Part shown: positions 3,097 to 35,766 of the stretch, piece after piece | How the letters are laid out: each line of letters begins with the position of its first letter | Numbering within the stretch: the stretch's first letter is position 1 | Virus record (IMG/VR): IMGVR_UViG_3300022666_000344 | Span: 1-35,766 of that record | Reading direction: 5' to 3' (one strand) | Length of the DNA: 35,766 nucleotides | Source: a virus | Lineage: Duplodnaviria; Caudoviricetes | Made by a program: the position numbers and the translations under genes | The notes under the pieces: generated by a model | The model's database searches: none | What the model was told of the DNA's origin: nothing | Seen by the model: only the letters and a program-made list of their open reading frames with translations

Positions 3097-3400
3097 GGGA
3101 TGGAAAGAAATCTATAAAAATCTGAGCTGGTATAACCGGCGCAAGCTTGTTGAAGCCAACCGGCCCTTCGGCAAGGATCCGAAAGAGTTCAGGGAAACAA
3201 TGATGTGGCTTTTGGCGGGCTTGTCGATCTTCGGTGTTGTTTTGAACGTGCATAAAGACCCGGCCGGGTTTCTGGTGTGGATGTTTACGAACGCTTGCTG
3301 GGCAGTGATCGATTTTAGAAAACGTTTATATGCTCAGGCGTTCTTGTTCGTTGTGTACTTTTTCTTGGCCTTGTGGGGTTGGATCAGCTGGGCAAGATGA
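3083..3400 (+). CDS. Small membrane protein, PnuC/SemiSWEET-like 3-TM unit
   Basis: AAGGAG RBS before ATG 3083; three hydrophobic segments with GFLVWMFTN and YFFLALWGWISW, resembling PnuC C-terminal halves. Confidence 0.6.
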   Translation: MRVNKGWKEIYKNLSWYNRRKLVEANRPFGKDPKEFRETMMWLLAGLSIFGVVLNVHKDPAGFLVWMFTNACWAVIDFRKRLYAQAFLFVVYFFLALWGWISWAR

Positions 3401-3421
3401 ATTGGTCGGGAGGTGAGATAA

Positions 3422-3670
3422 ATGGAGATGAATGAGCCGGTAGACAAATTTTTATCAAAAGAAGAACAACTCTTGCGCTGGTGCAGGCAGAAAAAGACTT
3501 TCTCAAAGGCCGAGGCCATATCTTTTGGCACTAATAATTATTATTTACGGGCCGAGAGAACGATCAGGGATTTTGTTCTGCAAGGCATCGTGAGGAAGAT
3601 CGGCAAGGATGAATGCATCCGGCGAAACCTCAAGGGCAACATGTCTTGGTATGAAGTTGTTTCTTCTTGA
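3422..3670 (+). CDS. Hypothetical protein (possible winged-helix fold)
   Basis: GGAGGTG RBS; 82 aa; the fold is a guess from the helical pattern. Confidence 0.65.
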   Translation: MEMNEPVDKFLSKEEQLLRWCRQKKTFSKAEAISFGTNNYYLRAERTIRDFVLQGIVRKIGKDECIRRNLKGNMSWYEVVSS

Positions 3671-19297: not shown

Positions 19298-19692
19298 AAA
19301 AGGCGATCATCGGGAAATATCTCGGGATCCCGTACCGCCACCGGGGCCGGACGATGGAAGGCCTCGATTGCTGGGGATTTCTCAAACTTGTTTATGCGGA
19401 TCTGGGTTACCGGCTTTTCGATATCGAGGATCTGGAATACAGCAAGGTGTGGGGTTTAAGCGGCAAGGACTATTTCAAGGAGCATTACGGCCACGATTGG
19501 GATCGCGTTGAAACGCCGCAGGTATTGGACGGCGTCTTGTTTGTTAATTCGAGAGGTATTGCCGATCATGCCGGGATCGTTCTTGGCAAGAGGCGGTTTA
19601 TCCATTGTTGCCGTCAGGGGGTCGTAGTGTCGAGGCTCGATGATGTTTCGTGGAAAAAGAAAACAGAAGGATTTTACAGGTTAAGAAAATGA
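19201..19692 (+). CDS. NlpC/P60 tail-associated peptidase (gpK C-terminal-like); start uncertain
   Basis: YLGIPYRHRGRTMEGLDCWG, HAGIVLG, FIHC; GGAGG RBS before ATG 19201. Confidence 0.85.
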   Translation: MQQNKTAVQGAGELPPVRSVSVRADAPDLRDVEKAIIGKYLGIPYRHRGRTMEGLDCWGFLKLVYADLGYRLFDIEDLEYSKVWGLSGKDYFKEHYGHDWDRVETPQVLDGVLFVNSRGIADHAGIVLGKRRFIHCCRQGVVVSRLDDVSWKKKTEGFYRLRK

Positions 19693-22600
19693 TATCCGTT
19701 CGTAATATCGATAATCCATTCAAACTCGAGGAGGCGCAGGTTCTGGAGTTTACCTATTCCAGAAGCAAATCCGTGCGCGATTATCTCGACAATTCCGGGT
19801 TTGATTATAAAGACAAACGCGTGATCGTTACCGGCAAGTGCATAGAAGACCTTGATTTGCGTATTGAGGAGGGTGACGAGATCGTGGTCGCGCCGGAAGT
19901 AAAGGCACCGGTGGTGGCGGTTATTTCGTTTATTGTTTCAGCGGTCTGGGCGGCCGCGGTGGCGCATCCGTTCTTGTTCACGTTCTTTGTTCTTTCGATG
20001 GGTTACGCCATTTACCAGTATATGAACCAGCCGAAAATGCCGGATTTCAATCTCGGTTCAGCCGGGATGGATGAGGGATCGCCCACATACGGCTGGGATG
20101 GGGTACAAACGATTCAGGAGGTCGGCGTGCCGGTTGCCGTGGTTTACGGCGAGCATCGTGTTGGCGGCAATATCATCAATCAGTTTCTTTGGGAGGATGG
20201 CGATAAGCACTATTTGAACGTTCTTCTGGCGATCTGCGAGGGTGAGATCGAGTCGATAGAAAATATCGAGCTGAATAATAATCCGATCATTAACTTCGAA
20301 GGCGTATCGATTAGCAAACGTTTCGGCACGAATTACCAGAGTATGATCCCGAATTTCGAGGATCTGCACAATATTTATCCGGTCAGTGCCAACCTCACGC
20401 AAAACAATCCTTACATTTACACCACGGTCGATTTGGATGTCGAGGCGTTCGAGATTCACTTGCGGCTTAATAACGGCCTCTATCAGCAGAATTCCAGCTC
20501 CGGGGATATCCAAAGCTGGAGCGTTACTTATCGGGTCGAATATAAAGAGCATTCCGCGGGGACATATATCGATCTGGGCGAGACGACTATTTCCGCGCAG
20601 TCGCGTTCATCGGTCAGGCGCGTATTCCGCAAGGCAGGGCTTATCCCGGGTCAGTACGATATCCGCATTACCCGCACCAGCGAGGACAGTTCGCTTCAGC
20701 CGTTAAAGCAGGGCGACCTTTTGCTTTTTCAGATCGATGAGCTTAAGACAGATGATTTGAGTTATCCGAACACCGCGCTTTTAGGGCTACAGCTTTTGGC
20801 GACCGACCAGCTTTCAGGATCGATGCCAAATATCACATCGGTTGTTAAAGGCAGGAAGGTTTCTGTACCGGATGTCAGAAACGGCACGGATCCGGTTACT
20901 TGGGATGATTATTACTGGGATGGGGCAGATTACCGTCTGCTTGCGGATGACACTTTGCTTTCGTGGGACGGTGTGACGTTTGTCGAGAGGTATTCGGCGA
21001 ATCCGGTCTGGTGCCTGCGGGATTTTATTATCAGCAATCGTTTCGGGCTGGGCGAGTTTATTTCATCCGGAAATCTGGATAACGCTTCGCTTCTTGAGAT
21101 GTCGCAGTATTGCGAAGAGAAAGTTGCGGACGGTCAGGGCGGCTACGAGAAACGGTTCAGGATGGATGTGGTTATCGACAGCAACAACAGGGCCCTCGAC
21201 GTTCTCATTCAATTATGTGCCACGTTTAATGCCATGCCGGTCTACAGCGCGGGCGGTTTGGCATTCAAGATCGACAAGATCACGAATCCGACCCAGTTGT
21301 TTGGCATGGGCAATATCGTCAAGGACACGTTTGCGCAGAGCTGGAAGACGATGAAAGAAGTGCCAAACGTGATCGAGGTTCAGTTCACCGATAAAGAGAA
21401 AAATTATCAGCAGGAAACGATCGCTTATATCGATGAGGAATCGCTGGCTTCCGGTGAGCCGATGCGTAAAAGCCAGATCCGGCTTTTTACGACTGGCGCA
21501 AGTTACGCGATCCGCGCGGCGCGTTACGCATTAAAGGTGGCGCGGTATATCAATCGTTCAGTCACGTTTAAGGCAGGGATTGACGCGATTGCCTGTCAGG
21601 CTGGAGATGTTATTTCGATATCGCACGATGTTCCGCAGTGGGGTTTTTCCGGCAGGGTGCAGGAGGGCAGTACTGATGTGCTTGTCAAATTAGACCGGTC
21701 AATGGTCATTGAGGACGGCAAGTCCTACAAGATTCAGGTTCGTTTCTCAGACGATACTATCGAGGAGCGGCTCATTACTTCGCCGACCGGAACGTATATG
21801 GAGGTTTCGTGCGAAGCGTTCCCGCAGGACCCGCAGGCTTTCGATGTGTTTGCGATAGGCGAAACGCACAAGGTCAAAAAAGATTTCAGGGTGGTGGCGA
21901 TCCAGCGGGAAGGCAAGAGTGAGGTTCAGATATCCGCGCTTGAGTATAACGAGGCGGTGTATGACGATTCGGACATCATTCTGCCGCAGAACAATTATTC
22001 GTCTTTATCGAGCGAGATCCCGGCCGTCAGCAACCTCAGCTTGACCGAGTCGTTGGTTAAGAAGACAGACGGAACGATCGAGAACGCCATTGATGTCTGG
22101 TTTGACCGCCCGGCCTATGTGGATCATTTCGTCAAGTCATACGCCAAGGCAAAGATTTATATTAGCGACGATGACGGTTTAAGCTGGCGCGCGCGAGGAG
22201 AAACCTCGGGGACGAATTTCCGGATCATCGGTGATATCGTTGATCATCACACCTATAAAATCAAAGTTACGTCGCTCGATTCCTTAAACGAAGAGAGTTC
22301 TCTTGCCTCCGCACCTGAAAGTACGATCACGATTGTGGGCAAGTCAGCCCCGCCTTCGGACGTGTCATCGTTTTTGGTTAACCGAAACAGGGACATGCTG
22401 TATTTCGGCTGGACGCCGATTCCGGATGTGGATGTCTGGGGGTATGAAATCCGGCGCGGTCTTGACTGGGAAAGCGCGGAGTTTATTACGCTTCAGCAGG
22501 GGACGCATTATCTCACCAAAGATGTCAAACGCGGCATTGGCCAGCGGTACTGGATCAAGGGGATCGATACCTCGGGAAATTATTCCGTAAACGCAAAAGA

Positions 22601-23306
22601 GGCGGTTGTCACGATTACTGAAATTCCCTTCAGAAATATTATCGCGGAATATCAGGAACAGCCGCTTTGGGAAGGCGCGAAGAATTATGTCGAAAAGGAC
22701 GGCGAGTCGATCGTGATCACGGACGGCGTTATGTCTGGAACATATACGACACCGGTTAGGGATTTCGGATATGTGGCAAGCGTCCATATCGGGATCGATG
22801 TGATTGTTTCGACGTCATTGGGCAGGAGGTTCAATAGCGATGGGGTGACGAAGTTTAACGACAGCCCATCGTATCGATTCACTGGTCAGGAAACGTTAAG
22901 AGCGGCCAGCTTTCGGATCCGTACGTCAGAGGACAATATCACATGGAAAGATTGGGAGGACTATCAGCCCGGAGATTATTACTGCCGGTACTTTCAGATT
23001 GAACTTGCTCTGCATCGCGAGAATATCGGCGATGAGATCACCTGTTCGACGTTTCAGTATTTTGGTGACCTGCCGGATGTCGATGACTACGGCAACGCTA
23101 CAGTGGTTTCGGCTGTAGATGGCAAGCAGGTGTTTTTCGGCAAGACCTATCACGAGGAGCCGAGCGTTCATATCGAGATTCGAAGCGGGAACGGCATCTA
23201 TTCGCAGTTTACAGATAAAAGCATCACCGGCTTTACGGTGAAGCTGTACGACGCTCAGGGCGTGGTGCAGACCGGTATGTTCGACTGGCACAGCCACGGG
23301 ATTTAG
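19689..23306 (+). CDS. Tail tip/host specificity protein (gpI-gpJ-like fusion)
   Basis: Ubiquitin-like N-terminus, hydrophobic segment, PVAVVYGEHRVGGNII, YPNTAL, SANPVWCLRD, GDVISISHD, FnIII-like domains. Confidence 0.9.
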   Translation: MISVRNIDNPFKLEEAQVLEFTYSRSKSVRDYLDNSGFDYKDKRVIVTGKCIEDLDLRIEEGDEIVVAPEVKAPVVAVISFIVSAVWAAAVAHPFLFTFFVLSMGYAIYQYMNQPKMPDFNLGSAGMDEGSPTYGWDGVQTIQEVGVPVAVVYGEHRVGGNIINQFLWEDGDKHYLNVLLAICEGEIESIENIELNNNPIINFEGVSISKRFGTNYQSMIPNFEDLHNIYPVSANLTQNNPYIYTTVDLDVEAFEIHLRLNNGLYQQNSSSGDIQSWSVTYRVEYKEHSAGTYIDLGETTISAQSRSSVRRVFRKAGLIPGQYDIRITRTSEDSSLQPLKQGDLLLFQIDELKTDDLSYPNTALLGLQLLATDQLSGSMPNITSVVKGRKVSVPDVRNGTDPVTWDDYYWDGADYRLLADDTLLSWDGVTFVERYSANPVWCLRDFIISNRFGLGEFISSGNLDNASLLEMSQYCEEKVADGQGGYEKRFRMDVVIDSNNRALDVLIQLCATFNAMPVYSAGGLAFKIDKITNPTQLFGMGNIVKDTFAQSWKTMKEVPNVIEVQFTDKEKNYQQETIAYIDEESLASGEPMRKSQIRLFTTGASYAIRAARYALKVARYINRSVTFKAGIDAIACQAGDVISISHDVPQWGFSGRVQEGSTDVLVKLDRSMVIEDGKSYKIQVRFSDDTIEERLITSPTGTYMEVSCEAFPQDPQAFDVFAIGETHKVKKDFRVVAIQREGKSEVQISALEYNEAVYDDSDIILPQNNYSSLSSEIPAVSNLSLTESLVKKTDGTIENAIDVWFDRPAYVDHFVKSYAKAKIYISDDDGLSWRARGETSGTNFRIIGDIVDHHTYKIKVTSLDSLNEESSLASAPESTITIVGKSAPPSDVSSFLVNRNRDMLYFGWTPIPDVDVWGYEIRRGLDWESAEFITLQQGTHYLTKDVKRGIGQRYWIKGIDTSGNYSVNAKEAVVTITEIPFRNIIAEYQEQPLWEGAKNYVEKDGESIVITDGVMSGTYTTPVRDFGYVASVHIGIDVIVSTSLGRRFNSDGVTKFNDSPSYRFTGQETLRAASFRIRTSEDNITWKDWEDYQPGDYYCRYFQIELALHRENIGDEITCSTFQYFGDLPDVDDYGNATVVSAVDGKQVFFGKTYHEEPSVHIEIRSGNGIYSQFTDKSITGFTVKLYDAQGVVQTGMFDWHSHGI

Positions 23307-23545: not shown

Positions 23546-23801
23546 TAAATGCAAAAAAGAGATACCGGACGACATGGCGTATATGTCGGTCAAGGGCGAC
23601 ATTATTTTGCGTATGCCGAAAAGGAAGCCGGTTGTTTTTACCTGCGCGGAGCAGGCGGAAAACTATGCCCGGCAGATGACGATTCATGATGTTTGCTGGA
23701 TCCAGATGCTACGCGAGCACGGCATCGAGCTTCACGATATGAACGCGGTTGCCGAGGCGTACCAGAAAAGAGAGGTGGGCGATGGCTTGGGACAAGACTA
23801 A
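23526..23801 (+). CDS. Small protein with a CxxC...C...HxxC possible metal site
   Basis: ICNKCKK...FTC...IHDVCW; AAGGAG RBS. Confidence 0.7.
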   Translation: MVKLICNKCKKEIPDDMAYMSVKGDIILRMPKRKPVVFTCAEQAENYARQMTIHDVCWIQMLREHGIELHDMNAVAEAYQKREVGDGLGQD

Positions 23802-24273
23802 ACCGGAGAACGACATGCTGTTGATCAATTTCCCTCCGGCTTGCCGGGCCAACTGGGAGGCGCTAGAGCTGTTGACGGACCCGGCGCTTCAGATCACGAA
23901 TGAGAAGGTGGCCCCGGGCGCGGGTATCGAGGATACGAAGCTGGCGCAGATTACCTCGGCCAGCAAGGTGAGCGGTACGGCTTTGACGGGTCTTGCCAGC
24001 GTGTCAGCGGCGGCCGGTGTTCTGCCGACCGAGAATTCTCCTAATAAATTAAAGGCGGATGTCAGCGATACGACACCGGAATATCTGGACGGGCTTATTG
24101 ATACGGCAATGTTTCAGGTATCGGCAGGCGATCAGTTGCAGTTAAAAGACGGCGGGGTTTCAACCGCGAAGCTTGAGAACGGCGCGGCTTCGCCCGGGAA
24201 TAACAAGTATTACGGAACGAATGCATCAGGGACAAAGGGCTTTTTCGATAGGACGGCGGTTTACGCCTCGTAG
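23782..24273 (+). CDS. Tail fibre-like structural protein
   Basis: MAWDKTKP..IN..RANW.ALE anchor-like N-terminus; IEDTKLAQI and GVSTAKL fibre-type repeats; DTTPEYL; NKYYGTNASGTKGF. Confidence 0.6.
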   Translation: MAWDKTKPENDMLLINFPPACRANWEALELLTDPALQITNEKVAPGAGIEDTKLAQITSASKVSGTALTGLASVSAAAGVLPTENSPNKLKADVSDTTPEYLDGLIDTAMFQVSAGDQLQLKDGGVSTAKLENGAASPGNNKYYGTNASGTKGFFDRTAVYAS

Positions 24274-24281
24274 GTAGAATT

Positions 24282-25007
24282 ATGGCGCATAAAATGCCCC
24301 CAAAACAATGCTCATCGAATATACCGGCTTGGACGGATCCGGTGCTTACGGATCTGTCTACAAAGGTGCGCAAGGTGCATATCGATGAGCTGAGGTCGTT
24401 TTTGAATACCGAGTTTGTCAGGCGCGGGCTTACGCAGGCGTCTTTTACGGATCCTACGATCACGGCTTTGGTGACAGAGATCAGGAAGGTGCATGTCGAT
24501 CAGCTACGCACGGAATTGGCGGCTTGCAAATCGGGCCGCGGTGAATCCGGGTATTGTCCGCAGGATAGTTCCGGATGCATGGATTTTTCGGATCCTACGA
24601 TTACGGCGCTTTCAACCGAGGTCAGGGGTATTCACTTTCGGCAGATGATGCAGAAGGTTCAGGCCATCATGACCGGCTGTATCTGCGAAACCGAGCAGTG
24701 CCAGTATTGCGCGGACTGCGGATATCACTATACGACTTGTTCGCATGCGGGCGTGGCATGTGATGATCATAAATATTCAGAATGCCAGTATTCGATAAAT
24801 CATTACTGGAATTGCGCGAGCATTAATTTGCCGTCGAGCGCTGAGCATCCTTACAAATCGGCGAACCCGCCTGTGGCTTGGGATGGATATGTGCCGTGGG
24901 ATTGGTGTGTGTATACGCCGCCCGGATCGAACTGGGGGACGTGCGAGTATTCGGGCGGGCATAACCATAGCGCGTGGAATTGTAAATGTAACCCGTATTC
25001 ATGGTGA
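24282..25007 (+). CDS. Cys-rich protein with three N-terminal repeats; candidate radical-SAM substrate and virion fibre component
   Basis: Repeats (W/F)(T/S)DPxxTxLxTx(V/I)Rx(V/I)H at aa 17, 55 and 102; 17 Cys, 13 of them in aa 133-236; many W/Y/H. Confidence 0.8.
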   Translation: MAHKMPPKQCSSNIPAWTDPVLTDLSTKVRKVHIDELRSFLNTEFVRRGLTQASFTDPTITALVTEIRKVHVDQLRTELAACKSGRGESGYCPQDSSGCMDFSDPTITALSTEVRGIHFRQMMQKVQAIMTGCICETEQCQYCADCGYHYTTCSHAGVACDDHKYSECQYSINHYWNCASINLPSSAEHPYKSANPPVAWDGYVPWDWCVYTPPGSNWGTCEYSGGHNHSAWNCKCNPYSW

Positions 25008-25011
25008 GGAA

Positions 25012-25407
25012 ATGTTTCAGGATCAGATAAAAGCACAGGAAGTATCGTTCAGGATCGCGCGGCTTGAAGGTGAGAACGCCGTTGGCGAGCTGGTGAACTG
25101 GTGCAGAAATAATCTCGATGAATTGACCGTTCAGTGTTTTACGCACAAGCGGTTCATGAGCGTTCAGGCTTTGATTGATGCCCTTTGCGAGGTTTACAGA
25201 GATCTGGGCGTTGAAGGCGACAAGGGAAACGTTTCGGTCTTTGTTCTATTTTTGGCCGGTGAGCACAGGGACAAGATTTACGCCTCGCACGTGGTCGAGC
25301 TTAACGATACGCACCGGCAGATTATCAGGGACAAACTGGGGCTGGATATCGAGGAGATTGAACCGGGCTTGAGCAAGCTGGACTGGAGGGCGGATGCCGG
25401 TATTTGA
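25012..25407 (+). CDS. Hypothetical accessory protein of the radical SAM cluster
   Basis: ATG 4 nt after the upstream stop with GAGG RBS; overlaps the first rSAM start. Confidence 0.7.
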   Translation: MFQDQIKAQEVSFRIARLEGENAVGELVNWCRNNLDELTVQCFTHKRFMSVQALIDALCEVYRDLGVEGDKGNVSVFVLFLAGEHRDKIYASHVVELNDTHRQIIRDKLGLDIEEIEPGLSKLDWRADAGI

Positions 25408-26617
25408 ACTTAAGAACAGCAAGGCGTGCGGCGATCTGCCGTTACAGTGCCGTGAGGTAATCAAGCGATACAAGGATGAGGGTATGTTCGATATCGGTTC
25501 GATAACGGACGGCAAGCAGGAATACAGCACAGTTTATTTTCTGATGACGCAGGACTGTAATCTGCGTTGTGCTTATTGCTATCAGCCCAAAGAATTCAGG
25601 CAAAAAGACAGCGGGATCACGCGGGATGTTATCGATGCGGCCGTGGACTGGGCCTCGCGCACGTTCGATGAAAGGCGCATCAAGTTCAGCATATTCGGCG
25701 GTGAGCCGTTCTTGAATTTCCCGATGATGCAGTACCTCTGCGATACATATTGTATGTACCGCTATGTGGTGACAACGAACGGGCTGGTTCTTTTGAATGA
25801 TCCCGGCATCCGCGAATGGGTCTTAAGGCAAAAATATCATCTCAATTTGAGCGTCAGTATATCTGCCTTGCGCGGTGTTCTGGGAGAGGGATATCTGGAT
25901 AAGGCAGGCGCGGTGCTTGATCTCGTAATGGCTAACGGCGGGGATGTTCATTATGTGGTCGATGACCCGGAGCGGCCGGGCATCTATGAGGAGATCATCC
26001 GGCTTTATGAATACGGCGTGCCTGTGGTGCGGATATCTTCGGCCCGGCATTGGGATCTGGTGAGGGGCAAGAACGAGCAATTCAAGGAATTATTCAGGCG
26101 CGTTGCGGATTACGTTTACTTCTCAGGCGAGCCGAAGTTCGGACGGAGCCAATGGGACATTGCGTTAAAAAACAACATTTATCGCAAATTGAAAGGCATC
26201 TCGCTCAAGGACGTGCCGCCGACTTTCTGCGGGTGTGGGTATTTGTATCTGGCCGTGAACAACAAGGGCGAGATATATCCGTGCGATTTCTTCGCCAATT
26301 ATCCGGAGTTCAAAATCGGGGATGTGTGGAGCGGGTTTAACGATACAGCGTTCTTTTTCAAAAAGATGGGCGACTGGATCGATGAGCTTTACGAACATTG
26401 CAGAGACTGCGAGGTTTGCTTTGACGGTGATATCCGCTGTTGTCCGCGCGCAATGTGTCTGGCCGAGAATTACACCGTGACCGGCAATCCGCTGAAACCG
26501 GCGGCGAATCACTGCTGGGCGAACCGGATCGAGACAGCGACGTATGAATATATCGCCAAGAAGGCGATCGAGACCGGTATCGATGCTTTGTATTACAAGG
26601 GGGCAGTGCGGACATGA
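25394..26617 (+). CDS. Radical SAM/SPASM protein 1
   Basis: CNLRCAYC, FGGEP, TTNG; SPASM CGCG..LAVNNKGEIYPC...CRDC...C...C...HC. Confidence 0.92.
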   Translation: MPVFELKNSKACGDLPLQCREVIKRYKDEGMFDIGSITDGKQEYSTVYFLMTQDCNLRCAYCYQPKEFRQKDSGITRDVIDAAVDWASRTFDERRIKFSIFGGEPFLNFPMMQYLCDTYCMYRYVVTTNGLVLLNDPGIREWVLRQKYHLNLSVSISALRGVLGEGYLDKAGAVLDLVMANGGDVHYVVDDPERPGIYEEIIRLYEYGVPVVRISSARHWDLVRGKNEQFKELFRRVADYVYFSGEPKFGRSQWDIALKNNIYRKLKGISLKDVPPTFCGCGYLYLAVNNKGEIYPCDFFANYPEFKIGDVWSGFNDTAFFFKKMGDWIDELYEHCRDCEVCFDGDIRCCPRAMCLAENYTVTGNPLKPAANHCWANRIETATYEYIAKKAIETGIDALYYKGAVRT

Positions 26618-27699
26618 GGATCCCTGTCTATAAATCGGTTTATCTGTATCTCACTCACGCGTGCAATGCGAATTGTTCGTTTTGTTACCGAAGAGGATTG
26701 TTCGAGAGGCACAAGGTTTCGACGCTTGGGCCGGTGAAGATGTCGAAGGAGACAGCGGCCGATATTCTGGACTTTTGTTTCTCGAAGCTTCAGCTGGCGC
26801 CCAAGTTCACGATCTACTTTTGGGGAGGTGAGCCGACGGTTAATTTCGAGGTCATCCGGCATGTGATGGAGAGGTATCCGCAGATGCTATTTCATATGAA
26901 CACTAACGGTGCGCTGATTGATGAGCGGATGCATGAGTTCTTCTCAAGGCACCGCAATATCGGGATCACATGGTCGTTCGGCAATTGTTATGAGAAATAT
27001 GGCGGACCTCAGGGCAAGGCGGAGGCGGAACGCTGGATGTTGAAATTGGTGAGGGAAAATCCAAACCACAATGTCAATTTCATGGTCGTGGAGTACGGAA
27101 GACTCAAAGAGGACTTTGATTTCATCGCGCGAAATATTACCCGCAATATCACGATCGACCTTGCAACCCGGCACGATCATAAGCCGGAAGATTTGGAGAG
27201 GTTTGCGGCGCAGTATTTCGAACTGCTTATCGAGCACGAAAAAGACACGGACCTTTTTCAGACGCTTAATCCGGCGCTTCATAGCAACGCTTATGTCAGG
27301 GAATTCGGGCTTAAGGCGCAGGTGCGGGAGTTTCACTTCTGCCGGACGGGCCTTGAACGGCTTTTTATCGATACTGAAGGCGGGATCTGGCAATGCGACA
27401 ACATGTATATCTGCAGGCATAACCGGCTGGGATCGGTTTATGATGGAATCGATTACTCGAAGCTGGATTATGTCTGGGAGATCGATGAGAACCGCGAGAA
27501 GTATCTGGGCAGGTTTTGCGAGAGTTGCGAGCTGTTCAAACGATGCCCGCGCAATAAATGTTTGGGCCTTAACCTCGAGCATATGGGCAATATGCTCGAT
27601 CCAGAGCCGGGCTATTGCGCCATGAACAAGGTTCTGGCCAAGGTCATTGATAAATATATCCAGTTGGAAAAAGAGAAACGGGAGGGAGTTCATGTCTAA
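26614..27699 (+). CDS. Radical SAM/SPASM protein 2
   Basis: CNANCSFC, WGGEP, NTNG; SPASM CRTG..FIDTEGGIWQC...CESCELFKRCPRNKC...YC. Confidence 0.92.
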   Translation: MRIPVYKSVYLYLTHACNANCSFCYRRGLFERHKVSTLGPVKMSKETAADILDFCFSKLQLAPKFTIYFWGGEPTVNFEVIRHVMERYPQMLFHMNTNGALIDERMHEFFSRHRNIGITWSFGNCYEKYGGPQGKAEAERWMLKLVRENPNHNVNFMVVEYGRLKEDFDFIARNITRNITIDLATRHDHKPEDLERFAAQYFELLIEHEKDTDLFQTLNPALHSNAYVREFGLKAQVREFHFCRTGLERLFIDTEGGIWQCDNMYICRHNRLGSVYDGIDYSKLDYVWEIDENREKYLGRFCESCELFKRCPRNKCLGLNLEHMGNMLDPEPGYCAMNKVLAKVIDKYIQLEKEKREGVHV

Positions 27700-28855
27700 C
27701 GCGGAATTGGTTGGTGGTAAATCCAAAGACGAAATAAAGAGCATCGATCTGTTCATCACCGAGAAGTGCAATATGAATTGCGATTACTGTTTTCATCCCA
27801 AGGGTGAGGCGGTGCTGTCGGTCGAGCAGGGTAAGAAGATCCTTGCTCGGATGAAGGAAATAAGCCCCGCGGGCCTGCAGGTCACGTTCTTCGGAGGCGA
27901 GCCGCTTCTCTATCCAGAGACGGTACTTGAGCTTGCTCTTTATGCCCGGGAGCTGTGGCCGCCGGATAAAAGCGGGCGGAACACCTCGACCTTTTCGATA
28001 TCGACCAACGGCATGTATTTCGATGAGTCAATGTTTAAGAAATTTGCCGAGTTGGGCATGGCGGTTCAGGTGAGTTGTGACGGCGATGAGATCACGCATA
28101 CCGAATATCGGCATGGCGACTATCCGCGCATCATCGAAAACATGAAGAAGATTCTGGCGATCAAGCCGGATATGAGCGTGCGCATGACGTTCACACCCAA
28201 GACAGTCGGAAGGCTGTCGATCAACGTGCAGTATCTACATGAGCTGGGTATTACGAAGATCATGCACCACGCGGTCATGGAAGAGGATTGGGCTCAGGAG
28301 GCGGTCGAGCAATACCGCTATCAGCTGACGCAGATTTATCATTATCGCCGCTACTGTAAGCGGCAGGGTCTGCCGATCGAGATCGCATTCATCGATAAGC
28401 CGCTCAAGATCGTCAATGATGAGGTGCCGCCGGAGAAGGAATACTGTCAGGCCGGAAAGACCTATATCGCGGTTTTGGATAACGGAGACGTCTATCCGTG
28501 TCACAGGGCGGCCAGCGCACGGATATTTAAGCTGGGAAATATCTTTGAGGCTCGGCCGTTTATACGCGGGATATTCCTGAATATCGACAAGGAATACACC
28601 GGGTGCTGGAAAAATTGCCCGCATGCACGGACCTGCCACAGTTGCGTGATCACGCACTATAAGGTTAATCAGGAGTTGACGGTTCCGGTCACGAAGTATT
28701 GCCGGATATGCGCGGTCGAGAGCGAGCAGGCGCTGGGTTTCCTGCCGGTTGAGCTGGCGGATAGGCGCGAGCGCATGCTTTATAAGGTCGGGCAGGTCTT
28801 GGTGGATGTGGCAAAGCAGAATGAAGAAATCTTGGAATCGTTAAAGAAAAAATAA
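27692..28855 (+). CDS. Radical SAM/SPASM protein 3
   Basis: CNMNCDYC, FGGEPLL, STNG, VSCDG; SPASM CQAG..AVLDNGDVYPCH...CWKNC...CHSC...YC. Confidence 0.92.
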   Translation: MSNAELVGGKSKDEIKSIDLFITEKCNMNCDYCFHPKGEAVLSVEQGKKILARMKEISPAGLQVTFFGGEPLLYPETVLELALYARELWPPDKSGRNTSTFSISTNGMYFDESMFKKFAELGMAVQVSCDGDEITHTEYRHGDYPRIIENMKKILAIKPDMSVRMTFTPKTVGRLSINVQYLHELGITKIMHHAVMEEDWAQEAVEQYRYQLTQIYHYRRYCKRQGLPIEIAFIDKPLKIVNDEVPPEKEYCQAGKTYIAVLDNGDVYPCHRAASARIFKLGNIFEARPFIRGIFLNIDKEYTGCWKNCPHARTCHSCVITHYKVNQELTVPVTKYCRICAVESEQALGFLPVELADRRERMLYKVGQVLVDVAKQNEEILESLKKK

Positions 28856-28867
28856 GGAGGGATGGCA

Positions 28868-29158
28868 ATGGCAAAAGTTATCAATCATGAGGAGATCGTG
28901 GTCGGCAGTTCGGTTAAGGCGTTGACACCGGCGGTTTATAACCCGGGCGACGGGGTTTCGGCATCGTTTGCGATGATCACGGCCGAAGGCGGTGACATGC
29001 GGTATTTCGTCAACGGCCAGAATCCAAGCGCGGCATCAGGCGTGCTTTTGGAGGAGGGCGATATCGTCGAGCTTCCGTCGATTTATCACATCAAGGATTT
29101 CAGAGTGATAAAGGCTGGCGATGATGACGGAAAAATTACGGTCACTTACGAAGGTTAA
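28868..29158 (+). CDS. Small beta-rich hypothetical protein, possibly structural
   Basis: AAGGAGG RBS; MRYFVNGQNPSAASGVLLEEGDIVEL. Confidence 0.7.
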   Translation: MAKVINHEEIVVGSSVKALTPAVYNPGDGVSASFAMITAEGGDMRYFVNGQNPSAASGVLLEEGDIVELPSIYHIKDFRVIKAGDDDGKITVTYEG

Positions 29159-29172
29159 AAGGAGGGTGAAAA

Positions 29173-29724
29173 ATGGATCATATTAAACATCAAAAAAAGA
29201 ACCGGATCATTACCCGGGTTAATGAAATCGTCACGAATGGCGGTCTGCCTAAAACCGGCCAGACGATGGTTTATCAGATGGGTGATGATGGTTATTACCA
29301 GATGGGGTATCCCATCGGCGGAGGGCAGAGGTATATCGATAACGGCGACGGCACCGTAACGGATACGGTTACCGGTCTTATGTGGGTCAAGGATCTGCAG
29401 ATGGCCGGATTCGGGATGACTATGTACTGGTATGACGCGATCAATGCCTGTGAGAACCTGTTTTTTGCAGGGCATGACGACTGGCGCATGCCGAATATTA
29501 ATGAGCTTATGTCGATTGTGGATCACTCGCGGTATGACCCGGCATGGGATCCCATGATCTTCGGATACCCTGTTGAGCAATGGGTGCCGTTCTGGTCATC
29601 GACAATAAGTTCGACATGGTCTGATGGCGCGTGGTGTTTGTATCCGTATGACGGGTATAAGACGACTTGGGGTAGACCTTACGATATGTGTTATGTGCGG
29701 CCGGTTCGCGGCGGACAAGCATAA
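29173..29724 (+). CDS. DUF1566/Lcl C-terminal (C-type-lectin-fold) protein
   Basis: LPKTGQ, DNGDGTVTDTVTGLMW, GHDDWRMPNINEL, FWSST, YVRPVRGG. Confidence 0.9.
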   Translation: MDHIKHQKKNRIITRVNEIVTNGGLPKTGQTMVYQMGDDGYYQMGYPIGGGQRYIDNGDGTVTDTVTGLMWVKDLQMAGFGMTMYWYDAINACENLFFAGHDDWRMPNINELMSIVDHSRYDPAWDPMIFGYPVEQWVPFWSSTISSTWSDGAWCLYPYDGYKTTWGRPYDMCYVRPVRGGQA

Positions 29725-31573: not shown

Positions 31574-31628
31574 AAAAAAGAAACCTTCGCTGGTCATTAT
31601 GGCTGGCGGAGGTTTTTTCTTTTATTTT
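31574..31628. terminator. Intrinsic terminator (possibly bidirectional) ending the phage late/accessory genes
   Basis: AAAAAAGAAACCTTCGCTGGTCA-TTA-TGGCTGGCGGAGGTTTTTTCTTTT. Confidence 0.75.
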
Positions 31629-31918: not shown

Positions 31919-32932
31919 ATGAGGAAGAGTAATATGACAAATAAAAAAATCGGGCATGGAGCGGTCAAAGAGAAATCTATTGATTCAAAGATTAGTCGTA
32001 AAAAAAAGATCGTAACAGATCAGAAACGACTGGCTGTTTTTGAAGGAGATTCTAATTATGGCACAAACTTATGTGTTGGTGATGAGCGTTTATGTAAGTG
32101 CGGACCCACGCATATTAACTGCATGAGTCCAAAGGATTGGTTAAAATCTCAGATTGGAGTCTGGCAGTTTTTTTATGAATCTCGAGATATAAGGGATAAA
32201 GCTATTCATCCCGCGACGTTTCCACTATCTCTTGCAAAAAAAATTATTGAGTTGTTCACTCATCAAGGGCAATTGGTTATCGATCCCTTTGTTGGTAGCG
32301 GAACATCACTTATTGCCGCAAATGATCTCAACCGGAATGCTGTAGGATTTGATCTTCAAAAGAAATACGTTGAGTTGTGTGTTAATCGGCTTCAGCAGAA
32401 TCCTAATTTGTTCAATGCTTGTTCTCAGATAGCTGTTCAGGATGACTCGAGAAATATTGCAAAATATATTAGCCCCAACACCGTAAGCCTGATTTGGACA
32501 TCCCCACCATATGCGAATCTTTTAAACCGATCGCGAAAAAATAAATCACGACGAAACAGAAATAATGATCAATTGGGTAAGGTTGAGCAGTATTCGCAAG
32601 ATGTTCGAGATCTGGGCACAATGTCAATTGATTCGTATGCGGTTGCCATGGGGGATATTTTCGAAGGATTACTACCTCTTCTGAAAGAGAAGGCGCATTG
32701 TGTTATTAACGTCCCTGATATGTGGTGGGAAAACCAACGCATAACGATTCATGTTTCGTTAATTGAAGAGCTTCGAAAACGCGGCTATGAGTTGCGCAAT
32801 ATTATAATCTGGGATCGAACTAACATTGTTAATAGCATCGGCATCTTTGGCTGGCCAAGCAATTATATAACTATGGGTGTCACTTTTGAGTATCTTCTGG
32901 ATTTCTGGAAGCCACCCCAAAAAAGAGATTAA
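31919..32932 (+). CDS. N4C/N6A DNA methyltransferase, motif I before motif IV
   Basis: HPATFP, DPFVGSG, then WTSPPY. Confidence 0.9.
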   Translation: MRKSNMTNKKIGHGAVKEKSIDSKISRKKKIVTDQKRLAVFEGDSNYGTNLCVGDERLCKCGPTHINCMSPKDWLKSQIGVWQFFYESRDIRDKAIHPATFPLSLAKKIIELFTHQGQLVIDPFVGSGTSLIAANDLNRNAVGFDLQKKYVELCVNRLQQNPNLFNACSQIAVQDDSRNIAKYISPNTVSLIWTSPPYANLLNRSRKNKSRRNRNNDQLGKVEQYSQDVRDLGTMSIDSYAVAMGDIFEGLLPLLKEKAHCVINVPDMWWENQRITIHVSLIEELRKRGYELRNIIIWDRTNIVNSIGIFGWPSNYITMGVTFEYLLDFWKPPQKRD

Positions 32933-32945
32933 TGAAGGGGATTTT

Positions 32946-33752
32946 ATGAAATTATTTTCAAAGGATGAGTTGATTAAAGAAATCAAAGCTATTGCATCGA
33001 AGGGGTGGCATAAAAGCGTAAAACAAACGCGAGACACTCGAAATGATGGCGCTGTTGGCAACACGCTGGAAGTACTTCTTGGTATTACAGAAAATAACCT
33101 GCCAATTCCTAATGCTAGAGAATGGGAGCTTAAAGGGCAAAGGGCGCACTCTGCTTCCTTGATAACATTAAAGCACATTGAGCCGTCGCCAACGGCGGCC
33201 CGCATTGTTAGCAATATACTCTTACCAAAGTATGGTTGGCCCCATAAGCAGGCGGGATCTAAGTATCCGAAAACCGAGATGAGTTTCCGATCTACAACTA
33301 GCGCTAGCTGTTTTACAAATCGTGGATTCAAAGTGGTTGTGGATCGTGCTGAAAGAAAATTAAAGTTTGTGTTTGATTCAACAAAGGTTGATACATCAGG
33401 TATTGAAATCAAAGCATGGTTAGCATCTGTTGAGAAAAGAGCTGGCTTGGGAGCGATTTCACCTGAACCATATTGGGGTTTTGAGGACCTAAAGTACGCA
33501 ATTGGCGAAAAGATAAAGAATTGTTTTTATGTTATTGCTGAGGCAAAAATTGAGGACGGGCATGAATATTTTTGTTATCAGAATCTTTTTGTTCTATCTG
33601 GTTTTTCATTTGAGAAATTCTTGTGCTGTGTAGAGGCAGGAAGTCTGCTGGTCGATTTTGACGCACGAACAGGACATAACCATGGAACAAAATTTCGGCT
33701 TAAGCAAGGCGTGTGGTCGGATCTCTATGACGATGTTAAAGAGGTATTTTGA
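32946..33752 (+). CDS. MvaI/BcnI-family type II restriction endonuclease
   Basis: NDGAVGNTLEVLLGITENN..IPN..EWELK...SLITL and DFDAR..HNHGTKFR. Confidence 0.85.
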   Translation: MKLFSKDELIKEIKAIASKGWHKSVKQTRDTRNDGAVGNTLEVLLGITENNLPIPNAREWELKGQRAHSASLITLKHIEPSPTAARIVSNILLPKYGWPHKQAGSKYPKTEMSFRSTTSASCFTNRGFKVVVDRAERKLKFVFDSTKVDTSGIEIKAWLASVEKRAGLGAISPEPYWGFEDLKYAIGEKIKNCFYVIAEAKIEDGHEYFCYQNLFVLSGFSFEKFLCCVEAGSLLVDFDARTGHNHGTKFRLKQGVWSDLYDDVKEVF

Positions 33753-33776
33753 TTAGCCAATTAATGAAAGAATGAA

Positions 33777-34547
33777 ATGAGAGAAAAATTGAAATTTCCT
33801 AAAGATCACCTTAATAAGATTATTTGCGGGGATTGTTTAGAGGTAATGAAAACAATTCCGAATGAATCAATCGATTTAATCGTAACCAGTCCACCGTATA
33901 ATCTCAAGAATTCTACAGGAAATGGAATGAAAGATGGTCGCGGAGGTAAGTGGTCCAGAGCCGCATTAATTAATGGATATAGCCATCATGATGACTGTAT
34001 GCCACATGATAAATATGTAGAATGGCAAATTAAATGTTTGGACGAGATGTATCGATTAATAAAAAATGATGGCGCTGTTTTTTATAATCATAAATGGCGG
34101 GTGCAAAATGGATTACTCCAAGATCGTCACGATATTGTTGCAAAATTTCCTGTTCGTCAAATAATTATTTGGAAAAGAAAGGGCGGTATTAATTTTAATG
34201 CGGGATATTTTTTGCCGACCTATGAAGTCATATATTTAATAGCGAAACCTGATTTCAAATTAGCGTCAAAAGCGAATGCTTATGGAGACGTTTGGGAGTT
34301 TACTCAAGAAATGAAGAATGGCCATCCCGCCCCGTTCCCTGTGTCTTTAATTCAAAGAATTGTTGCGTCGACAAATGCCAATATTGTTCTCGATCCATTC
34401 ATGGGTTCAGGGACAACAGCTGTTGTTGCTAAGAGTCTTAAGCGCAACTATATAGGCATTGATATATCACCAGAATATTGCCATATGGCAGAAGAACGAA
34501 TACGCTCAAAATATACTTCAAAGACAGCCGTTGAATGTTTGAAGTGA
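33777..34547 (+). CDS. Beta-class N4C/N6A DNA methyltransferase
   Basis: IICGDC, VTSPPY, HPAPFP, DPFMGSG. Confidence 0.92.
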   Translation: MREKLKFPKDHLNKIICGDCLEVMKTIPNESIDLIVTSPPYNLKNSTGNGMKDGRGGKWSRAALINGYSHHDDCMPHDKYVEWQIKCLDEMYRLIKNDGAVFYNHKWRVQNGLLQDRHDIVAKFPVRQIIIWKRKGGINFNAGYFLPTYEVIYLIAKPDFKLASKANAYGDVWEFTQEMKNGHPAPFPVSLIQRIVASTNANIVLDPFMGSGTTAVVAKSLKRNYIGIDISPEYCHMAEERIRSKYTSKTAVECLK

Positions 34548-34566
34548 TAAATTATAAAGGTGCCCA

Positions 34567-35766
34567 ATGAAATCAAAGACAAAATCGGCCGAAAATTCAG
34601 TTATTGCGACGGAATCTCCAAGCGACCTTAGTTTCTTAAAGGAAGTAAAATTAGCAGACTCAATAAAAAAGCTTGAAGAGCTTATGTCGCAAAATAAAAG
34701 GTCGTTTCTTCTTGGGGCCGGTTGTAGTTTGTGCGCTGGACTTCCATTGACTACTCAATTAACGGAAGGAGTAAAGAACGACAGCAAGTTGTCGGATGCA
34801 ACAAAGAATGTTCTTCAAATCATTGAGGCAAAATTTTCCGGTTCTGTCACGGCGACCATAGAAGATTATATGAGTGAGCTTGTCGATTTGTTATCAATAG
34901 CAGAGAGACGTGAAGAAGGCGGGGCGACTAACAAGAAAATAGATATCGATGGTAAAGAGTATGAAGCAAACGAGTTGAGAGAAGTTTTAAAGGACATTAA
35001 ATCTTCTATCGCAAAATGTATTGATTCGAAGAAATTAAATCTTACTACGCATCGCGAATTTGTTCGTGCAGTTCATCAAATATTGAGGTCAGGGAAGGGC
35101 AATGGCGCTAATTTGGTGGATTACTTCATTCTTAACTATGACACTTTGATAGAGGATGTTTTAGCTCTTGAACGTTTATCTTATGCAGATGGTTTTAGCG
35201 GCGGAGCGACGGCATGGTGGGATGATTCTGTTTTTAAGCAAGATGGTATTCAAGCCCGTGTTCTTAAAATTCATGGTTCGATCGATTGGATGCAGTTAGA
35301 AGGGGATCCTTTACCGCGACGCATCCGCTTAAGTGGGCAGAATTTTTCAGGTGTTGATCCAAAAGATAAAGTCATAATATGGCCCGCGGCAACCAAATAT
35401 CAGGAGTCGCAGAAGGATCCTTACGCGCAAATATTGGCTGTTATGAGAAATGCTTTAAGGCCCGCAGTTCATTCGGAAACTGTATTAGCTATCTGTGGAT
35501 ATCGTTTTGGGGATTCGCACATTAATGTCGAAATTGATCGTGCTTTACGAGAGTCCGAAGGCAGATTAACTGTGTTAATTTTTACTGAGAACGACTCTCC
35601 CATCGGCCAATTAAAATTATGGTTTAATGATGTTGCCGTTAGAGAGCAGGTTAGGATTTATGCGAAACGTGGTTTCTTTCATGGAGAAACCAGTATTACA
35701 TCAGAAACTGATTTGCCATGGTGGAAATTCGAAGTTCTCGCTCGAATACTGGGAGGCGAACGATGA
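34567..35766 (+). CDS. SIR2-like (SIR2_2) defence protein, probable NADase
   Basis: LLGAGCS, LNYDTLIE, DGFSG, LKIHGSIDW, GYRFGDSHIN; the stop overlaps an ATG (35763) that has a GGAGG RBS. Confidence 0.88.
   Translation: MKSKTKSAENSVIATESPSDLSFLKEVKLADSIKKLEELMSQNKRSFLLGAGCSLCAGLPLTTQLTEGVKNDSKLSDATKNVLQIIEAKFSGSVTATIEDYMSELVDLLSIAERREEGGATNKKIDIDGKEYEANELREVLKDIKSSIAKCIDSKKLNLTTHREFVRAVHQILRSGKGNGANLVDYFILNYDTLIEDVLALERLSYADGFSGGATAWWDDSVFKQDGIQARVLKIHGSIDWMQLEGDPLPRRIRLSGQNFSGVDPKDKVIIWPAATKYQESQKDPYAQILAVMRNALRPAVHSETVLAICGYRFGDSHINVEIDRALRESEGRLTVLIFTENDSPIGQLKLWFNDVAVREQVRIYAKRGFFHGETSITSETDLPWWKFEVLARILGGER

Follow-up and report, generated by a model that had tools for sequence, protein, structure and literature searches.

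Why does a tailed phage carry three divergent radical S-adenosylmethionine (rSAM)/SPASM enzymes among its tail genes, and on what do they act? The question is raised by IMG/VR record IMGVR_UViG_3300022666_000344, whose entire 35.8-kb length forms the window analysed here and whose genes (serine integrase, terminase, portal, capsid, tail tube, tape measure, L, NlpC/P60 and J, by Pfam and PHROG) are those of a lambda-like temperate phage. In its late operon a 163-aa short side-fibre gene is followed by a cassette that encodes a 241-aa protein with three repeats and 17 Cys, a 131-aa accessory open reading frame (ORF) and the enzymes RS1, RS2 and RS3. The sequence-only reading of this locus had proposed that chemistry like that of peptides made on the ribosome and modified after translation (RiPPs) matures a virion receptor-binding or fibre protein in an anaerobic host. 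The coordinates and motifs of its five ORFs were confirmed, as were the 17 Cys and the intact CxxxCxxC and SPASM Cys sets. The maturation proposal itself stands in part: a Cys-rich target at a putative fibre tip, enzymes grouping with maturases and relatives in Ca. Omnitrophota were found, while we infer the chemistry and the virion location of the protein, and one locus (L396, see below) is left unexplained. Our reading is that the 241-aa protein is probably a monomeric side-fibre tip, whose head would be thioether-crosslinked by the three enzymes before assembly.

Target and enzymes are linked across phages. Of 101 distinct target sequences collected, 78 are followed by 900 nt or more of sequence and 44 by 4500 nt or more. 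An rSAM gene lies near every one of the 78, and the 44 longer loci contain three rSAM genes in 41 cases, two in one and one in two. Starting from the enzymes, a Cys-rich ORF was found within 3.5 kb in 52/56 distant phage rSAM loci, which are not independent of one another, compared to 1/50 fibre loci without rSAM, and this contrast indicates that the linkage is not due to chance. Enzyme trios lacking the Cys-rich gene had been named as evidence that would speak against the sequence-only reading; in a sample of 401 genomes from the phylum to which genome G001 belongs, the eight that have an RS1 orthologue all have the target adjoining it, in one case across two contigs. The neighbourhood analysis that it had called for finds the cassette after tails of the lambda type, after genes for the baseplate wedge and after podo-like genes, with cassette identities of 58-72% where J is only 25-32% identical. 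A motif scan, chosen because alignment A2 of the short form diverged too much to scan loci with, returned 25 loci, mostly already known, plus L135. Given that triple-repeat proteins are accompanied by one or two enzymes in L041, L079 and L135, a correspondence of three repeats with three enzymes was rejected. On a single contig (L216, 7995-16694), two separate triple-repeat/Cys genes are each found with an rSAM set of their own.

The same association is seen behind one given fibre gene. A search with the 163-aa fibre returned 55 loci, 9 of which ran off contigs, and the 46 with a complete fibre correspond to about six events, phage-type homologues sharing ancestry. In allele A (26 loci) the fibre ends in AVYA[STP] and is followed by the cassette of the window. 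In allele B (12 loci) it ends in PRAVYA and precedes a triple-repeat protein that bears a (CT)n ladder, accompanied by a single SPASM enzyme and a B12-type rSAM. Allele C (4 loci) lacks the triple-repeat gene; here the fibre itself carries a fused CxxxC tip, and a 263-aa ORF and two other rSAMs are present. In L270 and L376 the same fibre (85% over 156 aa) continues straight into a CxxxC tip. Allele D (2 near-identical loci) carries a Cys-poor 291-aa protein with no rSAM in 6.4-6.8 kb, allele E (L396, 7555-9716) a Cys-poor 360-aa polyglycine protein beside a degenerate SPASM-family protein without CxxxCxxC, and allele F (one locus) another tip with a B12-type rSAM 1.2 kb away. Wherever a Cys tip is followed by at least 1.9 kb, an rSAM gene is present (33/33). 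The D and E tips (L394, L396) share a 34-aa C-terminal piece and their fibres a GQIW.RTD ending, which implies that fibre ends and tips are matched to each other in pairs. At the level of gene content, the series shows that this slot would hold the distal module of the fibre and that SPASM enzymes with intact motifs accompany Cys-rich tips.

Some of these loci display further features. In L380-L393 the (CT)n ladders at the ends of the triple-repeat proteins vary in length and occur with a SPASM enzyme and a B12-binding rSAM, the latter suggesting added methylation. In Erwinia phage ChrisDB (L226, 3100-7299; NC_031126.1), an isolated jumbo phage, gp185 and gp183 match the 263-aa ORF and one enzyme of allele C. 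Next to a virion structural gene this phage has small ORFs with CxxxC repeats, an accessory gene and a pair of rSAMs homologous to the enzymes of allele C; the annotation puts one of the repeat ORFs, 3100-3483, on the opposite strand.

The alleles also bear on the possibility that the product is not part of the virion but a modified protein or released peptide of the lysogen, encoded by a RiPP-like moron amid the tail genes. Indeed, the repeat domain is also found on many secreted bacterial proteins and the fold searches returned no structural match to a known virion protein. However, no signal peptide, protease or transporter was found for the tip protein or the cassette, allele C fuses the Cys tip to the fibre, alleles D and E swap in Cys-poor and polyglycine proteins, the tip co-varies with the last residues of the fibre, a homologue is fused to an S74 fibre chaperone, and the GC content of the cassette matches the phage, unlike that of the true moron past 31.6 kb. 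We regard a moron product as quite improbable.

The tip protein would consist of two parts. In the AlphaFold2 model its three repeats (residues 14-131) form one predicted three-helix bundle, with helices at 31-47, 69-84 and 116-131 and a predicted local distance difference test score (pLDDT) mostly of 84-94; the Cys-rich domain (133-241) has a pLDDT of 28-63 and its fold is not confident. Foldseek searches of the PDB and viral sets with this model gave no match at E<=0.001 and the best VIA match (Z 7.6) was a helical filament, an absence that excludes nothing. No NCBIfam model matches the protein, whose Cys spacing is irregular. We found 49 tip homologues and 3754 representative matches, mostly to the repeat domain, which in phages bears irregular Cys domains, CxC ladders or CxxxC repeats. 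Among the bacterial sequences, P0045-P0049, P0128, P0150 and similar ones have the triple-repeat domain at either end of secreted proteins, Elusimicrobia included, often with two Cys that maybe form a disulfide.

Alignment of 39 homologues reveals six conserved Cys, each followed at +3 or +4 by a near-invariant Asn, Asp or Glu, these acceptors being N13 (37/37), D95 (37/39), E136 (38/39), E138 (39/39), N182 (38/39) and N237 (37/39). In the 150 representative matches examined for the second linker, of which 129 were parsable and 57 have a Cys there, D or N stands at +3 of this Cys in 14/15 phage-type members versus 1/42 other, mostly secreted, homologues; as the phage-type members share ancestry, this represents one contrast and not 15 independent cases. 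The residues W200, W206, W218, W232, Y142 and Y148 are invariant or nearly so, and conserved His are present as well.

The three enzymes exceed the Radical_SAM PF04055 cut-off of 29.5 bits (32.1, 31.9 and 63.8 for RS1, RS2 and RS3) and have a single CxxxCxxC each, starting at residue 55, 17 and 26 respectively, with 8-10 Cys in the C-terminal part. The SPASM assignment comes from TIGR04085 for RS1 (32.5 bits, cut-off 27), from PF13186 above cut-off for RS3 and from alignment only for RS2. They are as divergent as had been claimed, with mutual identities of 20-27%. Across 13 aligned phage enzymes CxxxCxxC, GGEP and TNG are conserved in 13/13, and so are six Cys positions of the C-terminal part. 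A quick tree built from 74 phage enzymes separates RS1, RS2 and RS3 into three clades (Shimodaira-Hasegawa-like approximate likelihood ratio support 98, 99 and 97), RS1 and RS2 being sisters, and each clade holds siphovirus-type and myovirus-type members; they are old, separately kept paralogues.

For each enzyme the top NCBIfam model is that of PapB (NF047865), at 104.9, 101.3 and 163.7 against 340, a third to half of the cut-off. Scores remain below cut-off for SCIFF/CteB (TIGR03974, 45-108 vs 425), QhpD (TIGR03906, 52-63 vs 453), TIGR04463 (30-47 vs 525), the CXXX-repeat system enzyme (TIGR04115; 75.8, 33.7 and 93.3 vs 350) and the anaerobic sulfatase maturase (41-66 vs 349), and the target has no sulfatase motif. 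Thioether-maturase models score above cyclophane models for all three enzymes, and the 13-enzyme phage profile finds CteB as best solved structure (E 2e-53), compared to 2e-20 for the sulfatase maturase anSME. A grouping with nucleotide- or cofactor-modifying families, which had been named as a refutation, was not observed, since no such family is the best NCBIfam match of any enzyme. On these comparisons, a grouping with peptide or protein thioether maturases is supported.

It could nevertheless be that the tip undergoes another radical chemistry, such as Trp/Tyr cyclophanes or C-C cross-links, or that only one enzyme makes thioethers. The near-invariant Trp and Tyr residues and the low identity between the enzymes fit with this, as does the B12-type rSAM of allele B, which implies that such cassettes can carry other chemistries. 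Since thioether models outscore cyclophane models for all three enzymes and CteB is the closest solved relative, we consider it unlikely.

The attachment of the tip was approached through the fibre. The 163-aa protein has no Pfam match and no PHROG match at E<=0.01, and its KYYGTNxxGxKG module recurs within many long phage proteins. The gene directly upstream of the target varies by phage group and often has a Tyr three residues before the stop: 7/14 upstream-gene families show this Tyr at -3 versus 25/443 background families (Fisher p 1e-5), the last 8 residues having been removed prior to family clustering. Some misses come close, as a motif-ending gene is found elsewhere in the locus in L077 and L079 and three genes upstream in L206, and the Tyr is at -1 or -2 in L202 and L212. 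In the reverse test, 43 of the 52 proteins sharing the fibre module have neither motif nor target, 7 have both, all from the window's clade, and 2 have the Tyr only. Moreover, a triple-repeat gene follows 38/38 fibres ending in AVY-x(-x) and 0/8 with other endings. A Shine-Dalgarno artefact was rejected as the origin of the motif, the Tyr codon being not purine-rich and about 15 nt before the start. Between a fibre ending in AVYNE and a triple-repeat protein with about 50 Cys, L076 (2616-5472) and L077 encode a reverse transcriptase together with a virion-like protein of 337 aa, an arrangement that resembles a diversity-generating retroelement.

Several observations weigh against a thioether-matured monomeric tip. 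The counts of the allelic series overstate independence, given the six events and the shared ancestry. The gene directly upstream lacks the Tyr motif in 7/14 families, and the Tyr is at -2 in allele B. No enzyme scores above any maturase family cut-off, and SPASM enzymes perform many chemistries. No RiPP recognition element (RRE) was found, and with CxxxCxxC beginning at residue 17-55 there is no room for a full N-terminal RRE domain. The homologue P0052 is fused to Peptidase_S74 (E 9e-14), a chaperone that is a hallmark of fibres and spikes, which suggests that this relative is trimeric and not monomeric. Furthermore, the invariant C140, C143 and C146 (CxxCxxC) have no acceptor at +3 or +4 and look like metal ligands, the SPASM-family protein of L396 may be a relic or a non-catalytic assembly partner, and no Cys-rich ORF accompanies the three rSAMs of the distant loci L080-L082.

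The last three points suit other explanations. The Cys of the tip could mainly hold a metal or an Fe-S cluster, the SPASM proteins acting as loading or folding factors, as the CxxCxxC at 140-146, the conserved His and the protein without SAM-cluster motif beside the polyglycine tip of L396 would allow; metal-bound tail tips are known in lambda gpL and T4 gp37. Against this stand the retention of CxxxCxxC, GGEP and TNG in 13/13 enzymes, the D/N/E at +3 specific to phage-type members, and the three stable paralogues, which are hard to fit to one loading step. We therefore give metal loading a low probability, and a mixed state, with some Cys cross-linked and others metal-bound, is compatible with the thioether reading too. 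As for L080-L082, they could mean that the enzymes act on DNA, a cofactor or a sulfatase next to an incidental Cys-rich gene. The weak MoaA, viperin and QueE-like matches point the same way but score far under the peptide-maturase models, the window has no sulfatase, the linkage reaches 78/78 and allele D has no rSAM, hence an incidental neighbour appears highly improbable.

The thioether reading can be laid out as a sequence of steps. In the first, the genes sit together in a single late operon and the cassette moves as a unit among sipho-, myo- and podo-like tails, as its distribution demonstrates. Three copies of the 163-aa fibre would then offer three AVYAS ends, very probably bound by the three helical-bundle repeats; this docking is argued from genetics, i.e. 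the coupling to the fibre end, the bundle being a prediction. The enzymes likely act covalently on the tip protein, given that intact enzymes track the presence of a Cys-rich tip. Ranthionine-type thioethers would probably form at C10-N13, C92-D95, C133-E136, C135-E138, C178-N182 and C234-N237, in the host cytoplasm and ahead of virion assembly. They would take the place of disulfides, whose formation is precluded in a reducing anaerobic cytoplasm, and stiffen a scaffold displaying variable receptor-binding loops. More speculatively, the three enzyme clades may divide the sites, CxC ladders going with one SPASM enzyme and the irregular domain with three. An extension to many tailed phages of anaerobes, with swappable enzyme-matured tips, a pseudo-trimeric socket on Tyr-ended fibres, dedicated RRE-less enzymes (here three, with separate Asn, Asp and Glu site preferences) and a thioether-locked head, is tentative and on balance doubtful; if it holds, no viral structural protein would have been shown before this one to undergo maturation by radical chemistry.

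Features of the late operon around the cassette, with coordinates in the window
Feature	Coordinates	Strand	Basis or remark
J, lambda J-like central tail tip protein	19650..23306	+	phrog_31 E 1e-155; Pfam FNIII-A_GpJ, Phage-tail_3
Two small ORFs, 76 and 91 aa	23315-23801		Between J and fibre; conserved in the window's clade
Short side-fibre protein, 163 aa; putative trimeric carrier of the tip	23782..24273	+	
AVYAS motif, fibre C-terminus; putative docking peptide for the triple-repeat domain	24256..24273	+	
Tip protein, 241 aa, 17 Cys; putative substrate of the three enzymes	24282..25007	+	
Tip residues 14-131, three TDPxIT..KxHIxELR repeats	24321..24674	+	AlphaFold2, alignment
Tip residues 133-241, Cys/Trp/His-rich domain	24678..25004	+	CxxE, CxxE, CxxxN, CxxN conserved; loops between variable
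Accessory ORF, 131 aa from ATG at 25012	25012..25407	+	Optional; no clear fold match
RS1, rSAM/SPASM enzyme, 407 aa	25394..26617	+	PF04055; TIGR04085
RS2, rSAM/SPASM enzyme, 361 aa	26614..27699	+	PF04055; Cys set by alignment
RS3, rSAM/SPASM enzyme, 387 aa	27692..28855	+	PF04055, PF13186
98-aa ORF and Lcl_C (DUF1566-type) protein	28862..29724	+	PF07603 E 2e-27
Long hairpin and T run	31578..31618	+	19-pair stem

The genes are read on one strand up to the long hairpin, which likely marks the end of the late operon containing the cassette. Overlapping starts and stops, as described before, hold for the 131-aa ORF and the enzymes (14, 4 and 8 nt); the fibre and the tip gene are separated by 8 nt, and the tip gene and the 131-aa ORF by 4 nt. 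Likewise, the position after the tail tip and fibre genes holds as claimed, with two small ORFs and the fibre-like gene lying between J and the target; the 91-aa ORF has four Cys including a CxxC and no family match. The absence of a visible promoter or terminator break was borne out: no promoter-like site was seen on the + strand between 22500 and 31800, and the terminator scan of this interval gave 15 sites on both strands versus 8.5 expected, several weak + strand ones being intragenic and the only long hairpin being that of the table. No transporter, peptidase (leader peptidase included) or sulfatase that would serve the cassette occurs among the 43 ORFs in the Pfam scan, and the phage-like base composition also holds, with a GC of 0.51-0.53 in the cassette versus 0.50-0.56 across the structural genes. 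Past the hairpin the GC drops to 0.38-0.45; the low-GC part at 31919-35766 (0.38-0.41), with two N6/N4 methyltransferases, an MvaI/BcnI-family endonuclease and a SIR2-like protein, is probably defence cargo.

The accessory ORF exists as described but is dispensable, being present in 56/78 loci and absent in 22, and in L157 it is placed after RS1. Its fold searches gave no clear match (best Z 4.2), which excludes nothing, and its model starts with helices, unlike the strand-then-helix order of an RRE. An essential RRE was rejected as its identity because of the 22 loci without it. The 98-aa ORF and the Lcl_C protein (29173-29724) usually follow triple-repeat alleles, being present behind A and B and absent behind C and D; they are missing in L045, L046 and L049 and thus not essential. 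The Lcl_C fold is a frequent target of diversity-generating retroelements; the window contains no reverse transcriptase.

Close relatives inside genomes are labelled Ca. Omnitrophota in 8/12 cases, Planctomycetales in 3 and Saccharibacteria in 1. One of the Ca. Omnitrophota cases is the complete chromosome of Ca. Velamenicoccus archaeovorus LiM, where the cassette is 93-96% identical (L047). An anaerobic Omnitrophota host is supported, as the relatives in genomes sit in Ca. Omnitrophota prophages. No tip-protein homologue was found in the GenBank phage collection. Contigs from four metatranscriptome runs gave even coverage of the region at 85% likeness, but contigs cannot show transcription and were not used.

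If this reading is correct, a post-translational step is added to phage assembly, as an undescribed way of building a host-binding tip. It would also explain the rSAM/SPASM genes among the tail genes of many uncultured phages, often annotated as metabolic cargo, and would provide RRE-free enzymes for cross-linking folded proteins. The matched fibre-end/tip pairs would form a simple natural plug-and-socket system for host recognition by Omnitrophota phages. The literature search, most subscription papers being beyond its reach, found no rSAM maturation of a virion protein, in agreement with the earlier statement that no characterised example was known. As far as their accessible text goes, a cyanophage paper treats an rSAM maturase as an antibiotic gene (PMC12801897) and an Omnitrophota genome preprint does not mention SPASM; three supplements of PMC12583861, a paper that names the Velamenicoccus metaproteome PXD025008, have no match for phage, SPASM or terminase, and proteome evidence may exist unseen.

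Thioether cross-linking by rSAM enzymes is known for peptides and a few proteins. According to the available part of the CrpC paper, QhpD and CrpC install such bonds in QhpC, the quinohemoprotein amine dehydrogenase gamma subunit, and in CrpA of Methanococcus voltae, with an rSAM/SPASM gene beside a Cys-rich protein as here, Cys-to-Asp/Glu or CxxQ/D acceptor motifs, and a seven-Cys SPASM set in CrpC (PMC13692751). Its main text mentions neither phage nor tail. These systems, from what is available of them, use one enzyme with an RRE instead of three without; here the target is phage-encoded in a tail module and the QhpD and TIGR04463 model scores are far under cut-off. The ranthipeptide maturases PapB, CteB/SCIFF (PDB 5WGG) and NxxcB likewise pair a Cys with an Asp, Glu or Asn at a distance of three or four residues, NxxcB using Asn in the accessible text of its report (PMC9389541), in an NxxC order that the phage target reverses to CxxN. 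In contrast to their short precursor with leader, protease and transporter, the phage target has 241 aa and the cassette has none of these. The TIGR04115 rSAM_Cxxx_rpt enzyme and its target PF27846 tSAM_targ_Cxxx_rpt form a bioinformatically defined rSAM/Cys-repeat pair, for which a search on both accessions found nothing related. In the ESM Atlas, a cluster that is 83% viral and has PF27846 on 52% of its members appears as a weak look-alike (score 0.80), and the repeat domain of the window bears CxxxC tails in L076, L077, L093 and L135, like CXXX-repeat targets; the window's own target differs by its irregular Cys spacing, and its enzymes score only 34-93 vs 350.

For the tip itself, the likeness would be to the gp38 adhesin, a monomeric tip capping gp37 in T2/T6-like Straboviridae, which attaches to the trimeric fibre by its N-terminal domain, shows variable loops on a rigid scaffold and, in the accessible text of its report, appears to need no modifying enzyme (PMC12032242). 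No sequence or fold match between the two was found, and in place of the gp38 polyglycine sandwich with its glycine-rich motifs the phage tip has a Cys-rich domain; the polyglycine protein in the cassette slot of the sister phage L396 recalls gp38. Judged from its genes, the cassette would represent a known chemistry in a new role.

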